Source of the DNA: a virus
Lineage: Duplodnaviria; Heunggongvirae; Uroviricota; Caudoviricetes
Reading direction: 5' to 3' (one strand)
DNA: 39,217 nt
Virus record (IMG/VR): IMGVR_UViG_2684623171_000001
The notes under the pieces: model-generated
What the model saw: only the letters and a program-made list of their open reading frames with translations
What the model was told of the DNA's origin: nothing
Databases searched by the model: none
Program-made: the position numbers and the translations under genes
In this document: positions 33,134 through 36,911 of the stretch, piece by piece
Numbering within the stretch: position 1 is the stretch's first letter
How the letters are laid out: each line of letters starts with the position of its first letter

Positions 33134-33505
33134 TTATGCGCTGGAAGCTGTTTTCCACGAACCATCTATCAGAAACTGAACAGGTCGATAATATGCGGTT
33201 ACCGTTGCATTACCATCACCAGCGACATCAAGCCCTGTAAGTACGCATCCGTCAGGAACCTCAAAAATATTATATTGCATTCCAATCGTTGACCTTGAAC
33301 CTCTTCGAATGCTTTGAACATAACGTGAGTCAGCCACAGACTGCGTCATCCCCGATGTAATATTTATATCCTGCGTTCCGTCAAATGGGACACCATTAAT
33401 ATTTCTTGGAGTGGCGAGTTTATTCGCTGCAACAGCCGCTCCGTTCGATGGCAGGGCATTCGCGGCCCTGTTTACAGTATCCCGTAAACCGAAGGTTTCA
33501 GGGAT
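33134..33505 (-). CDS. Alternative tail fibre C-terminal cassette (S'v), promoterless and unfused in this orientation
   Basis: Minus-strand translation from the right site gives GLRDTVNRAANALPSNGAAVAANKLATPRNINGVPFDGTQDINITSGMTQSVADSRYVQ..., paralogous to S residues GLRETVNKAADALPSGGTAVAANRLATPRNINGVPFDGTLDINITSGMTQSTADGRYVQ...; the last ~55 aa diverge. Confidence 0.6.
   Translation of the reverse strand: MPETFGLRDTVNRAANALPSNGAAVAANKLATPRNINGVPFDGTQDINITSGMTQSVADSRYVQSIRRGSRSTIGMQYNIFEVPDGCVLTGLDVAGDGNATVTAYYRPVQFLIDGSWKTASSA
33479..33505. promoter_or_regulatory. Right recombination site (gix-like), upstream of gin
   Basis: Near-palindrome ATCCCGTAAACC-GAA-GGTTTCAGGGAT, resembling gix/hix half-sites. 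Confidence 0.55.
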
Positions 33506-33559
33506 GCCGTATATCTGCTTTAAAAGGCCTTTCCACCTCTTTTTAAGGAAGGTAAATAC

Positions 33560-34120
33560 ATGCTGATTGGCTATATACGCGTATCAACAAATGACCAGAA
33601 CACAGGTTTACAAAGAAATGCGCTGGAATGTGCAGGATGTGAGCAGATTTTTGAAGATAAAATGAGTGGTAAAACGACACAGCGGCCGGGACTGAAGCGG
33701 GCACTGAAGAAACTAAAACCCGGTGACACACTGATGGTCTGGAAACTGGACAGGCTGGGGCGCAGTATGCGCCACCTTGTTGCGCTGACAGATGAATTAC
33801 AGCAACAGGGGATAAATTTTCGTAGTCTTACTGACAACATTGATACGTCAACCCCCATGGGGCGCTTCTTTTTTCACATAATGGGTGCGCTGGCAGAAAT
33901 GGAGCGTGAATTAATTGTCGAACGGACACGGGCTGGTCTTGCAGCTGCCCGTGAAAGGGGACGAACCGGCGGCAGACCCCGTCGTCTCACGCAGGAACAA
34001 TACGAGCAGGTCGGGCGTTTACTGGCCGGGGGTGTCAGTCGAAGACAGGTGGCACTTATTTTTGATATCGGCCTTTCAACCCTTTATCGTTATTATCCTG
34101 CGAGCGTTTCGGAAAAATAA
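33560..34120 (+). CDS. gin: Serine-recombinase DNA invertase (Gin/Hin/Pin family)
   Basis: 186 aa; N-terminus MLIGYIRVSTNDQN with the catalytic Ser; C-terminal HTH (GLSTLYRYY); adjacent to the invertible fibre segment. Confidence 0.85.
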   Translation: MLIGYIRVSTNDQNTGLQRNALECAGCEQIFEDKMSGKTTQRPGLKRALKKLKPGDTLMVWKLDRLGRSMRHLVALTDELQQQGINFRSLTDNIDTSTPMGRFFFHIMGALAEMERELIVERTRAGLAAARERGRTGGRPRRLTQEQYEQVGRLLAGGVSRRQVALIFDIGLSTLYRYYPASVSEK

Positions 34121-34219
34121 GACGCTCTCTTTGTTGGGCCTTTACTGAATTAACGCAAAATGGCGTTTATCGGTCTGTGGATATGATAATTCAGTTTATT
34201 CAGGAACAGGCTGATTATT

Positions 34220-36259
34220 ATGACGTCCAAATGGGTTCAACTATCATCAATGCCCGGAAACTTTACTGTTAAAGTTTCCGGTGGTACAGCGGCATTTCTT
34301 GAGGCTCCCTTTCCTCCGGCCGAAACAAAAGGAGGAATGACATTTGCTGACTGTCTCATCAGTTTTAATACACGGGATTGCCTGTGGGTAAGGCCAGTAT
34401 CCGGTGATCCGAGTGTGGAAATTACCGGAGCGGGTATTGGTGCGGTCATTCCGTTAAGTGCTGATGTTGCCGGTACTGCTGAACCGTCAGACTGGGATAA
34501 TGCTGAAACACATACCCGTCCGTCAGGAAATGAAACTGCTTCCAGCTCCCCTTCCTGGTATTACGTGGTGGTTCTTGCTGGTCAGTCAAACGGTATGGCT
34601 TACGGTGAAGGTCTGCCACTGCCGGAGACATATGACCGCCCCGAACCGCGTATTATGCAGTTAGCCCGTCGCAGTACAGTCACGCCGGGAGGTAAAGCCT
34701 GTCAGTATAACGACATCATTCTGGCCGACCACTGTCTGCATGATGTGCAGGATATGAGTGGAAAAAATCACCCGAAAGCGGATGTGGCTAAAGGGCAATA
34801 TGGCACCGTGGGTCAGGGGCTTCACATTGCCAAAAAACTGCTGCCGTTTATTCCGGCAGATGCGGGGATTCTGCTGGTTCCCTGCTGCCGTGGTGGTTCT
34901 GCATTCACGGCGGGTGCTGACGGCACGTACAGTGACAGCACGGGTGCTTCAGAGGACTCAGCCCGCTGGGGTGTGGATAAGCCGCTGTATAAGGACTTAA
35001 TCAGCCGGACAAAAGCGGCACTGGCGAAGAACCCGAAAAACCGCCTGCTTGCTGTGGTGTGGATGCAGGGCGAGTTTGATATTGATGCGAAGCCGACGGA
35101 GCATTCCGCGCTGTTTCTGGCGATGGTGGAAAAATTCCGCGCAGACCTGGCTGAACAGGCGGAACAGTGTACCGGTGGCAGTGCTGCTGGCGTTCCGTGG
35201 ATTTGTGGCGATACCACGTATTTCTGGAAACAGAAAAATGAACCGGCATACCAGGCAATCTATGGCGGCTACAAAAACAAAACAGATAAAAACATTCATT
35301 TCGTTCCATTAATGACAGATGAAAATGACGCGAATGTACCCACCAACAATCCGGCAGAAGACCCGGATATTGAATCCATTGGTTATTACGGCTCAACGTG
35401 GCGTAACAGTGCCGCCACCTGGACATCTGCGGACCGGGCCAGCCATTTCAGTTCATGGGCACGTCGTGGGATTATTTCCGACCGTCTGGCCACGGCAGTT
35501 CTGACTCATGCGGGGCGAACCACAGTAAAAGCCGATGTTCCATCTTCTGAAACTGAAGCACCAGTGCCGTCACCTTCAGAAACTGAAGCAGTAACCACAA
35601 CACTGCTGTCTTATCGTGTCAGTGAGTCAGAAGGAAATCTGAAAGCCCAGGGCTGGGAGCCGGCTGGCGGTAAAGCTGAAATTATCAGTGATGCAGGAGG
35701 CACAGGTGGTAAGGCAATGAAACTGACCAAGGAAACAGGTAAATCATCCTGGTATCTGGATCATGATGCCGGTACTGGTGCTGAACTGCTGAAAAATGGT
35801 GGTTTAATCAGTTGTCGTTTTAAAGTACCTGGCGACCTGGTGGCAAACCAGTATGTCATGGGGCTTTACTGGCCGGTTTCCTCTCTGCCGCAGGGTGTCA
35901 CCCTGACAGGGGATGCAGGGAATAATCTGCTGGCATCGTTCTACATCCAGACAGACGCAAAAGACCTGAATGTGATGTACCACAATGCAAAAGTGGCAAC
36001 AAATAACCAGAAACTGGGAACCTTTGGTGCATTTGATAATGAATGGCATACGCTGGCCTTCCGTTTTGCAGGAAATAACAGCCTTCAGGTTATTCCGGTT
36101 ATTGATGGTCAGGATGGTGCCGCGTTTACCCTGACGCAGTCACCAGTAGGAACTTTCCCGGTGGACAAACTCCGCGTAACGGATATCACAAAAAATGCAA
36201 CTTACCCGGTGCTGATTGACAGCATTGTGGTGGAAGTGAAAAAAGCGGTAACAGAATAA
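34220..36259 (+). CDS. SASA/SGNH-type sialate O-acetylesterase-like protein with unknown N-terminal domain and lectin-like C-terminal domain (NanS-p-like prophage esterase)
   Basis: 679 aa; GQSN catalytic motif (VVLAGQSNGMAYGEG) and downstream WMQGEFD; duplicated SETEA linker (PSSETEAPVPSPSETEAV); C-terminal ~220 aa have beta-rich, lectin-like composition; has no counterpart in Mu between gin and mom. Confidence 0.65.
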   Translation: MTSKWVQLSSMPGNFTVKVSGGTAAFLEAPFPPAETKGGMTFADCLISFNTRDCLWVRPVSGDPSVEITGAGIGAVIPLSADVAGTAEPSDWDNAETHTRPSGNETASSSPSWYYVVVLAGQSNGMAYGEGLPLPETYDRPEPRIMQLARRSTVTPGGKACQYNDIILADHCLHDVQDMSGKNHPKADVAKGQYGTVGQGLHIAKKLLPFIPADAGILLVPCCRGGSAFTAGADGTYSDSTGASEDSARWGVDKPLYKDLISRTKAALAKNPKNRLLAVVWMQGEFDIDAKPTEHSALFLAMVEKFRADLAEQAEQCTGGSAAGVPWICGDTTYFWKQKNEPAYQAIYGGYKNKTDKNIHFVPLMTDENDANVPTNNPAEDPDIESIGYYGSTWRNSAATWTSADRASHFSSWARRGIISDRLATAVLTHAGRTTVKADVPSSETEAPVPSPSETEAVTTTLLSYRVSESEGNLKAQGWEPAGGKAEIISDAGGTGGKAMKLTKETGKSSWYLDHDAGTGAELLKNGGLISCRFKVPGDLVANQYVMGLYWPVSSLPQGVTLTGDAGNNLLASFYIQTDAKDLNVMYHNAKVATNNQKLGTFGAFDNEWHTLAFRFAGNNSLQVIPVIDGQDGAAFTLTQSPVGTFPVDKLRVTDITKNATYPVLIDSIVVEVKKAVTE

Positions 36260-36405
36260 AAAAATCCCGCCGGTCATGATATGGCTGGCGGGAGCTACCT
36301 AACCCATAAAGGAAAATAAAAATACTCCCGAAGGAGTGGTTATCAGTCGCTTCGATGTTTTTACCCGATAACGAATTATGTAGTCAATATCAAAGGTAAG
36401 GTTAT

Positions 36406-36588
36406 ATGACATTCGTTCATACAATGCTGCTTTATTTCTGCGCTGTGGTCAGTGCGTTATATCTGGTGAGCGGTGGTTATAAGGTCATCAGAAATTATAT
36501 TCGCCGTAAAATTGATGATGCGGCAGCTGAAAAACTCAGTAAAACAGCACAGGCACCGTCATCCCCAAACGACCCGACCCCGCTCTGA
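36406..36588 (+). CDS. Small membrane protein
   Basis: 60 aa; N-terminal TM helix (MLLYFCAVVSALYLVSGG); AAGGTAAGG RBS. Confidence 0.35.
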   Translation: MTFVHTMLLYFCAVVSALYLVSGGYKVIRNYIRRKIDDAAAEKLSKTAQAPSSPNDPTPL

Positions 36589-36623
36589 TAACGGGGCAAT
36601 ATACCTGCAAAAGGAGAATATTC

Positions 36624-36869
36624 ATGCCAGAGATTAAAGGCACGGTTACTGAAGAGCTTGTCAAACAGGCACTTTATTCTGAAGAAGTGAACCGCGTGCT
36701 GAAGGCGCAGGTTCGCAAGGATTTTGAGGCACAAATCGACGCATATGTTGATGAAGTGCTGGCCCGAATGGTTGGCCGTTCTCCGGCTGAAAACAGCACG
36801 GAAAATGATCCTCAACCCGTAGAGCAACCAGAGCCGGTTCAGCCCGGAACTGACGGTACTATGATGTAA
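36624..36869 (+). CDS. Small acidic hypothetical protein
   Basis: 81 aa; strong AAGGAG RBS; followed by a hairpin terminator. Confidence 0.4.
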   Translation: MPEIKGTVTEELVKQALYSEEVNRVLKAQVRKDFEAQIDAYVDEVLARMVGRSPAENSTENDPQPVEQPEPVQPGTDGTMM

Positions 36870-36879
36870 CAATACCGAC

Positions 36880-36911
36880 CGGCAGGTTTCCCTGCCGGGT
36901 GAGTTTGTTAA
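36880..36911 (+). terminator. Hairpin terminator after the two small genes
   Basis: 8-bp stem CCGGCAGG / CCTGCCGG with a 4-nt loop, followed by GTGAGTTTGTT. Confidence 0.4.

Follow-up and report, generated by a model that had tools for sequence, protein, structure and literature searches.

A predicted NanS-p-family sialate O-acetylesterase with a distinct N-terminal module at the right end of the Mu-like prophage Sp18 of Escherichia coli O157:H7

The sialate O-acetylesterases of the NanS-p family are thought to help enterohaemorrhagic Escherichia coli (EHEC) exploit the O-acetylated sialic acids of mucin, and have been regarded as characteristic of lambdoid prophages, above all those that carry Shiga toxin (Stx). 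NanS-p enzymes have been described as active O-acetyl esterases on 5-N-acetyl-9-O-acetylneuraminic acid (Neu5,9Ac2) and on mucin, and they support growth on Neu5,9Ac2 (PMC8065619). In lambdoid phages nanS-p follows stx/Q and precedes the lysis genes S-R-Rz, in the order stx, nanS-p, a 183-bp open reading frame (ORF), a 246-bp ORF and S-R-Rz, the small ORFs between nanS-p and S having been reported earlier (PMC10462455). Members such as L0105/z1466 of phage 933W and gp84 (vb_24B_21) of phage phi24B consist of an N-terminal DUF1737 domain, an SASA/SGNH esterase core and a C-terminal DUF6645 domain, connected by flexible linkers. A role in the virion has recently been described for gp84 of phi24B, which decorates the T=9 capsid through a DUF1737 hexamer that plugs the central hexons, and which subsequently loses its esterase part through cleavage close to SSP motifs (bioRxiv 10.64898/2026.04.10.717836). 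The chromosomal relative NanS (YjhS, PDB 3pt5), in contrast, is a single-domain protein of about 326 amino acids (aa) encoded in the nanCMS operon, which is not phage-borne and possesses neither an N-terminal module nor a lectin-like C-terminal domain. Here we describe a NanS-p-family gene that lies between gin and com-mom of a Mu-like prophage, at positions 34220-36259 of a virus record of 39,217 nucleotides (IMGVR_UViG_2684623171_000001), the whole of which is referred to below as the window.

A 4.9-kb part of the window (33500-38400) matched positions 5074718-5079618 of E. coli O157:H7 Sakai (NC_002695.2) with 100% DNA identity, within the span annotated by RefSeq as "prophage Sp18, Mu-like phage", a transposable prophage of myovirus type that interrupts sorM. 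The Mu-like character of the Sp18 backbone was indicated by this feature and by Pfam matches to Resolvase, Com and Mom. The ORF at 34220-36259 (plus strand, 679 aa) is ECs_4993 of Sp18, labelled as a hypothetical protein in NC_002695.2 and as "DUF6645 domain-containing protein" or "sialate O-acetylesterase" in newer RefSeq annotation. By its core and C-terminal domain ECs_4993 is a member of the NanS-p family, and it departs from the family in its N-terminus, which is not DUF1737, and in its position outside a lambdoid late region; the most fitting description is that of a NanS-p variant of Mu-like prophages whose N-terminal module has been swapped. Taken as a whole, our reading is that an intact NanS-p esterase belongs to a conserved three-gene module of Mu-like prophages, in which DUF1737 is replaced by another N-terminal module and, in the Sp18 lineage, the enzymatic part has been exchanged, and we assign to this reading a probability of about 0.72.

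The esterase core of ECs_4993 (aa 112-430; 34553-35509, plus strand) carried the Pfam family SASA (PF03629) at aa 116-312 (E-value 6.5e-12; 46 bits, cut-off 24.8), and aa 104-428 matched chromosomal NanS (PDB 3pt5, E-value 1.9e-118). NanS shares the same catalytic fold and the same Ser and His residues at 53-66% identity, the identity amounting to 66% over aa 112-260 and to 53% over aa 261-430. The conserved sequence blocks were represented by GQSN (aa 121-124, with Ser123), GGS225, QGE283 and RASH (aa 406-409, with His409), and the GQSN and RASH blocks were invariant in the Mu-like and lambdoid members compared. In the published block scheme the catalytic Ser belongs to block I (GQSN) and the His to the last block (RSSH/RASH) (PMC10462455); both residues have been shown to be catalytic by mutagenesis of NanS, the acidic partner of the family being undefined (PMC10017367). 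The lectin-like C-terminal jelly-roll domain (aa 459-679; 35594-36256, plus strand) matched the C-terminal domain of NanS-p (PDB 6yp6) over aa 459-674 with an E-value of 1e-111 and contained DUF6645 (PF20350) at aa 524-642 (E-value 2.4e-69, above the curated cut-off). Its residues Y545, Y550, Y575 and F646 align to Y510, Y515, Y540 and F611 of vb_24B_21, the four aromatics of lambdoid NanS-p that were proposed as carbohydrate-binding (PMC10462455).

From aa ~100 to the C-terminus the identity of the Sp18 protein amounted to 78% with NanS-p of Stx2 phage 1717 and to 81% with that of phage 1720a-02, and the core was 81-82% identical to lambdoid cores. Purifying selection was evident in the core and the C-terminal domain (ratio of nonsynonymous to synonymous divergence, dN/dS, 0.09-0.19). 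As judged from these sequence features, ECs_4993 is very probably an intact sialate O-acetylesterase of the NanS-p family, and from the 78-81% family identity and the conserved residues it would be expected to act as an esterase on Neu5,9Ac2 and on the O-acetylated glycans of mucin. Linker 2 (aa 431-458; 35510-35593, plus strand), which joins the two domains, contained a direct repeat with 30-bp spacing (35541-35560 and 35571-35590) that encodes SETEAPVPSP twice and places SETEA at aa 443 and aa 453. This unit varies in copy number, with two 30-bp units in the 679-aa Sakai allele and one in a 669-aa allele (P0015) that is very common (at least 1000 contigs). The repeat was overlooked by Tandem Repeats Finder and was established by a repeat search together with comparison to the 669-aa allele. 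The preliminary description, made from the letters of the window alone, had read this ORF as a three-part protein, with an N-terminal domain of no recognised family, a GQSN-bearing SASA/SGNH core, a duplicated SETEA linker and a lectin-like C-terminal domain, and had likened it to NanS-p; all of this agrees with the matches above and with those of the N-terminus below. Of the catalytic residues whose absence it had named as an objection, Ser123 and His409 are both in place.

Contrary to the conserved enzymatic part, the N-terminus of ECs_4993 shows no relation to lambdoid NanS-p. No match to DUF1737 (PF08410) was obtained in ECs_4993 at an E-value of up to 0.1 or in the N-domain at up to 10, and the absence of this domain, for which the preliminary description had proposed a search, is the most telling feature. 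No Pfam family at all was found in aa 1-90 even at an E-value of up to 10, no BLASTP similarity was detected between the first ~100 aa and the N-termini of two lambdoid NanS-p proteins, and no paralogue of the N-domain was present in the window. In place of DUF1737, the Sp18 protein carries an unrelated orphan domain of ~78 aa (aa 1-78; 34220-34453, plus strand) and a longer linker. AlphaFold2 modelling from a 16-sequence alignment predicted aa 1-78 with moderate confidence as an all-beta domain resembling a small cupin-like barrel (pLDDT 72-87), while a model built from 3 sequences was too poor for use (pLDDT 48). Fold searches with this model returned weak, generic matches to small cupin-like barrels, weak matches to PA14 carbohydrate-binding domains and unnamed phage proteins of ~90 aa (TM ~0.6, E-value ~0.01-0.1) from which no function could be read. 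The N-domain contains no histidine, hence it is not a metal-dependent cupin enzyme. Linker 1 (aa 79-111; 34454-34552, plus strand), rich in Ser, Thr, Pro and acidic residues and predicted to be disordered (pLDDT below 50 at aa 81-119), ends in ASSSP at aa 107-111 (SSP at aa 109), a motif reminiscent of the proposed processing site of gp84, although the resemblance proves nothing.

An exhaustive HMMER search against 1.84 billion cluster representatives and a tblastn comparison with phage and plasmid records both recovered N-domain homologues from Mu-like contexts only. The HMMER search added one genuine distant homologue, from Salmonella (P0008), to what a word-indexed homologue search had recovered, namely fragments of the same protein, and a profile scan of one genome per species returned nothing. 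A further protein in the HMMER output (P0005, 1445 aa, repetitive and rich in Gly, Ala and Val) was judged to be a compositional match and was not used. Between Sp18 and the Mu-like prophage of E. coli AST46 the N-domain displayed a dN of 0.26 at saturated dS, which indicates a selected coding domain rather than junction debris.

The database matches fell into two architectures, proteins of 669-691 aa without PF08410 and proteins of 638-651 aa with PF08410, and every protein of 669-691 aa that was examined sits in a Mu-like context. DNA similarity of the Sp18 gene to about 300 records of Stx and other lambdoid phages was confined to ~34554-36248, that is to the core and the C-terminal domain, and started at the 3' end of linker 1 (~34554; megablast query position 1055-1069). 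Over these two domains Sp18 was closer to lambdoid proteins (72-88% identity, dS ~1.0-1.15) than to the AST46 type (60-83% identity, core dS ~2.4), and in neighbour-joining (NJ) trees rooted on NanS they nested among lambdoid sequences, whereas the N-domain (63% identity), DUF1378 (74%) and DUF826 (72%) were closest to AST46. This domain-wise incongruence implies that the enzymatic part was exchanged while the N-terminal module stayed with the backbone. A recent acquisition is contradicted by the synonymous divergence of ~1 from every lambdoid copy examined. The simplest reading of these sequence comparisons is that the trio of esterase, DUF1378 and DUF826 genes is ancestral in the Mu-like clade and that, long ago in the Sp18 lineage, an allele of lambdoid type took the place of ~34554-36250 and left the N-terminal module and the flanks as they were.

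Two further proteins showed mosaic relationships. A mosaic esterase (P0075; GCA_012426925.1, AASMET010000054.1, L007:608-2539) combined DUF1737 and the first ~150 core residues of lambdoid type with a part identical to Sp18 from about aa 260 to the end, and it was located in an Sp18-type right end with DUF1378, DUF826, the minus-strand ORF, com and mom; only 607 bp of the contig precede the gene, so that it may be a genuine recombinant of Mu-like and lambdoid phages or else a chimera produced during assembly. The lectin-like C-terminal domain of a lambdoid protein of the DUF1737 type (P0091) grouped with AST46-type Mu-like proteins in an NJ tree without support values, which suggests further exchange at the domain level between the Mu-like and lambdoid groups.

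The arrangement found in Sp18 was encountered repeatedly in other Mu-like prophages. In the prophage of E. coli AST46, gin is followed by a 684-aa esterase, DUF1378, DUF826, a minus-strand ORF, com and mom, and this esterase is 66% identical to ECs_4993 over its full length, N-terminus included; N-termini identical to the AST46 type were present in Shigella sonnei. The loci of two additional homologues (P0092 and P0111) contained DNA_circ_N, Gp45, GP46, Baseplate_J, Gp48, a tail fibre and a tail-fibre assembly protein, followed by the esterase, DUF1378 and DUF826; a gin gene (Resolvase) preceding the esterase was called for P0092 and not for P0111. One Mu-like sublineage (L008:12792-13844; L009, L010) kept the trio and had a C5 DNA methylase (PF00145) in place of com-mom, apparently as an alternative module of anti-restriction in that position. 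A Salmonella enterica contig encoded a homologue with a 29% identical N-domain after Mu-type baseplate genes, tail-fibre genes and gin; this contig ends inside the esterase, and the locus is known only on its upstream side. The same Salmonella prophage carried two extra small ORFs between gin and the esterase (L005:9426-9910), of which one is 58 aa long and has a hydrophobic segment at its C-terminus, and the other is 87 aa long.

The order gin, esterase, DUF1378, DUF826 is present in at least three diverged lineages of Mu-like prophages (E. coli, Shigella sonnei and Salmonella), and the trio is a conserved right-end accessory module of a Mu-like prophage clade in E. coli, Shigella and Salmonella. 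Among 5,426 complete E. coli genomes, 168 contained at least 80% of the 4.9-kb region and 204 contained the segment that joins the 3' end of gin to the N-domain, overall ~3-4%. In isolated phage records neither the N-domain nor the cassette was detected, except in two Stx prophage records that carry an inserted Sp18-like Mu. The preliminary description had known of no such gene in a Mu-like backbone at this site, but the idea of a peculiar insertion is not supported by the AST46-type and Salmonella prophages and the 168-204 E. coli genomes with the same arrangement. It had also named, as a finding that would refute its proposal, the occurrence of the gene between gin and com-mom of canonical Mu-like phages; the gene does occur there in Mu-like prophages, but not in isolated Muviruses, among which Mu itself was checked directly.

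Comparison with Mu defined the extent of the module. The two right ends share gin, com and mom in the same order, with 79.5% identity of the mom protein, but the 94 bp that separate the gin stop from the com start in Mu, where gin was correctly said to be followed almost directly by com-mom, correspond in Sp18 to ~3.3 kb with four ORFs. As estimated in the preliminary description, the extra DNA with the esterase and the small genes is about 3.3 kb long (~34121 to ~37400). Its left edge is the end of gin (ECs_4992; 33560-34120, plus strand; Resolvase E-value 1.4e-51, HTH_7 and RefSeq), the invertase gene that forms the left neighbour of the module. On the right, com (37487, the RefSeq start, to 37687, plus strand; Zn_ribbon_Com, E-value 3e-12) and mom (37641-38378, plus strand; Mom, E-value 4e-77) follow. 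In Mu, com is preceded by a GATC cluster, the region through which Dam and OxyR control Pmom. When Sp18 was aligned with AST46 and Mu, the corresponding cluster was recognised as AATCGATCGTTTTTGTCGATCGATT at 37419-37443 (unstranded) upstream of Sp18 com, an imperfect palindrome with two GATC sites that is conserved in AST46 and lies at a shorter distance from the com start than in Mu. Since this Mu-like cluster is kept, the right edge of the extra DNA is placed near 37400.

Downstream of the esterase gene, ECs_4994 (36406-36588, plus strand) encodes a DUF1378 protein of 60 aa with a hydrophobic N-terminal segment (PF07125, E-value 1.2e-38) and ECs_4995 (36624-36869, plus strand) a DUF826 protein of 81 aa (PF05696, E-value 2.8e-15). 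These two genes follow nanS-p in the same order and with the same sizes in phage 1720a-02, a partnership that is frequent but not universal. The Sp18 proteins were 54% (DUF1378) and 47% (DUF826) identical to their Stx-phage counterparts, and no DNA-level match of either gene was found in lambdoid phages. The two small genes of the preliminary description are these two, while the AT-rich spacer of about 600 bp that it placed after them in fact holds a further annotated ORF, ECs_4996 (36908-37372, minus strand), located between DUF826 and com in the stretch of lowest GC content (35-44%). ECs_4996 encodes a RefSeq-annotated protein of 154 aa with a CxxC...CxxC pattern, which matched phrog_26524 (E-value 2.5e-52) and no Pfam family. 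An unrelated 86-aa ORF fills this slot in AST46, and the copy in LC727895 was matched in 3 separate pieces; the slot is variable and probably not part of the functional module. PADLOC returned no match for any of the four ORFs of the extra DNA, nor did Rfam for 33400-38600.

A Mu-sized headful is ~39 kb, and absence of circularisation is expected for Mu. Sp18 (window 1-38511), with 38.76 kb against 36.7 kb for Mu, would nearly fill such a headful, which would leave little room for variable host DNA at the right end; carrying a 3.3-kb module, it must be shorter than Mu in other regions. Sp18 has been predicted to be intact, and it was reported as not inducible by mitomycin and without circularisation, its DNA being efficiently packaged (PMC2669165). 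The interrupted sorM of the sorbose phosphotransferase system (PTS) operon is a RefSeq pseudogene, and the right end of the window (~38500-39217) reaches sorA. A rearranged fragment of an Sp18-type right end was present on the IncF plasmid pO177A1 (NZ_CP024617.1:1-7633, L013), where gin and the DNA encoding the N-domain are followed by dusA at the place expected for the esterase core, then by com-mom, DUF826 and DUF1378 in inverted orientation, the last two separated by an IS1 transposase.

With respect to its mode of action, ECs_4993 lacks an N-terminal hydrophobic signal as judged from its sequence, which implies that it would leave the cell only through phage lysis. After lysis the lectin-like domain may target the enzyme to sialoglycans, where the esterase, with Ser123 and His409, would strip 7/8/9-O-acetyl groups from mucin sialic acids; the de-O-acetylated sialic acids would then be open to sialidases and could be used by E. 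coli. Owing to its position between gin and com-mom, the gene is not under the Q/pR' control of its lambdoid counterparts. By analogy with lambdoid NanS-p, the N-domain would most likely play a DUF1737-like role, that is backbone-specific attachment or oligomerisation, possibly docking to the Mu-type virion. Capsid-decoration proteins such as the DUF1737 fusions and the mucin binder Hoc of T4 likewise join a small N-terminal domain through a flexible linker to a glycan-directed cargo, and, as in the DUF1737 fusions, the N-terminal module and the cargo of the Sp18 protein recombine independently. The N-terminal modules themselves differ, the Sp18 domain being a predicted beta barrel and DUF1737 a helix with a three-strand sheet. 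Docking of ECs_4993 to the virion is on this analogy conceivable and is indirectly supported by the retention of the N-domain with the backbone when the core was exchanged, though we regard it as somewhat doubtful. Rather unlikely, too, is the general scheme in which NanS-p would be a cargo mounted on particles via interchangeable N-terminal adaptors, DUF1737 for lambdoid T=9 capsids and the orphan beta barrel for Mu-type particles. If it were true, Sp18 would provide the first case of a Mu-like phage that displays a mucin-glycan esterase on its virion, the N-domain would represent a new family of virion-docking modules, and two unrelated groups of temperate phages of enteric pathogens would have converged on the same sialoglycan-editing decoration of their particles.

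Several points weigh against our reading of the locus and of its N-terminal module. Upstream of ECs_4993, neither a promoter nor a late-activator site could be recognised convincingly: matches in a promoter and terminator scan were no commoner than in shuffled sequence, and an activator site of the Mu C type was not recognised. A block upstream of the esterase is conserved in Sp18 and AST46 and is not enriched elsewhere in the prophage. The NJ trees that place the Sp18 core and C-terminal domain among lambdoid sequences lack bootstrap values, simple vertical inheritance could account for the strict occurrence of the N-domain in Mu-like backbones, and the esterase gene does not belong to the gene clusters for head and tail. 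That DUF1737 anchors to the capsid, the basis of the analogy, is reported in a single preprint that is not peer-reviewed (bioRxiv 10.64898/2026.04.10.717836).

The main rival explanation, which we consider a substantial though minority possibility, is that ECs_4993 is a soluble "moron" product of benefit to lysogens, which helps the lysogen population to use O-acetylated sialic acids after partial lysis, the N-domain having no link to the virion and serving merely in carbohydrate binding, solubility or oligomerisation. It agrees with the growth on Neu5,9Ac2 that nanS-p alleles support (PMC8065619) and with the position of the gene at the accessory right end near mom, away from structural genes. 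The fold matches of the N-domain, which include small cupin barrels (often dimerisation modules) and weak PA14 hits, also fit it, as does the occurrence of several nanS-p paralogues in EHEC genomes (median 1 and maximum 12 matching places per genome with any). However, it leaves unexplained why the N-terminal module stayed with the Mu-like backbone during the exchange of the core with a lambdoid allele, and why the boundary of the swap falls exactly at the linker after the lambdoid capsid anchor; moreover, a protein without a signal is freed only at lysis, which is also the time of virion assembly.

An improbable alternative, put forward in the preliminary description, is that the enzyme, free or bound to the virion, modifies a receptor or barrier, de-O-acetylating O-antigen, capsule or colanic acid in favour of Sp18 adsorption or in a block of superinfection. 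Phage-borne SGNH deacetylases acting on O-antigen exist, the protein has a lectin-like targeting domain, and the possibility was raised for NanS-p in a review (PMC8065619). Against it stand the 66% (aa 112-260) and 53% (aa 261-430) identity of the core to NanS and the lectin-site residues, which are shared with the NanS-p family active on sialoglycans. Lambdoid phages and Mu-like prophages, which differ greatly in receptors and tails, possess the same core, and no link to a tail-fibre gene was seen, the esterase gene lying downstream of the invertible tail-fibre segment with gin between them. That the gene is a decaying passenger, a relic of old lambdoid recombination that is no longer expressed or functional, would fit the lack of an identified promoter, the variable and partly degraded adjoining slot and the rearranged, IS1-disrupted copy on pO177A1, but is highly improbable given the intact 679-aa frame, the intact homologous frames in all lineages examined, the dN/dS of 0.09-0.19 and an N-domain dN well below the saturated dS, the invariant catalytic and binding residues, and the retention of the trio across lineages diverged to 60-70% identity.

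Under the reading that we prefer, a NanS-p esterase in a conserved Mu-like module with its own N-terminus, the enzyme itself is ordinary and has already been named by automated annotation (RefSeq sialate O-acetylesterase). Within partial coverage of the literature, no paper was found that links nanS-p or an acetylesterase to Sp18 or Mu-like phages, and an earlier mention is possible. Counts of nanS-p that rely on DUF1737 or on adjacency to stx would miss the Sp18 copy in EHEC genomes. The nanS-p paralogues supply homology for recombination between Mu-like and lambdoid prophages. The same enzyme, together with two companion genes, is a stable trait of a Mu-like prophage clade as well, and its enzymatic part evolves separately from the N-terminal module. 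It is the recent description of DUF1737 as a capsid anchor that lends weight to the module swap, and the replacement of DUF1737 in a phage with a different particle offers a direct test of whether virion display or lysogen metabolism is the selected function of NanS-p.

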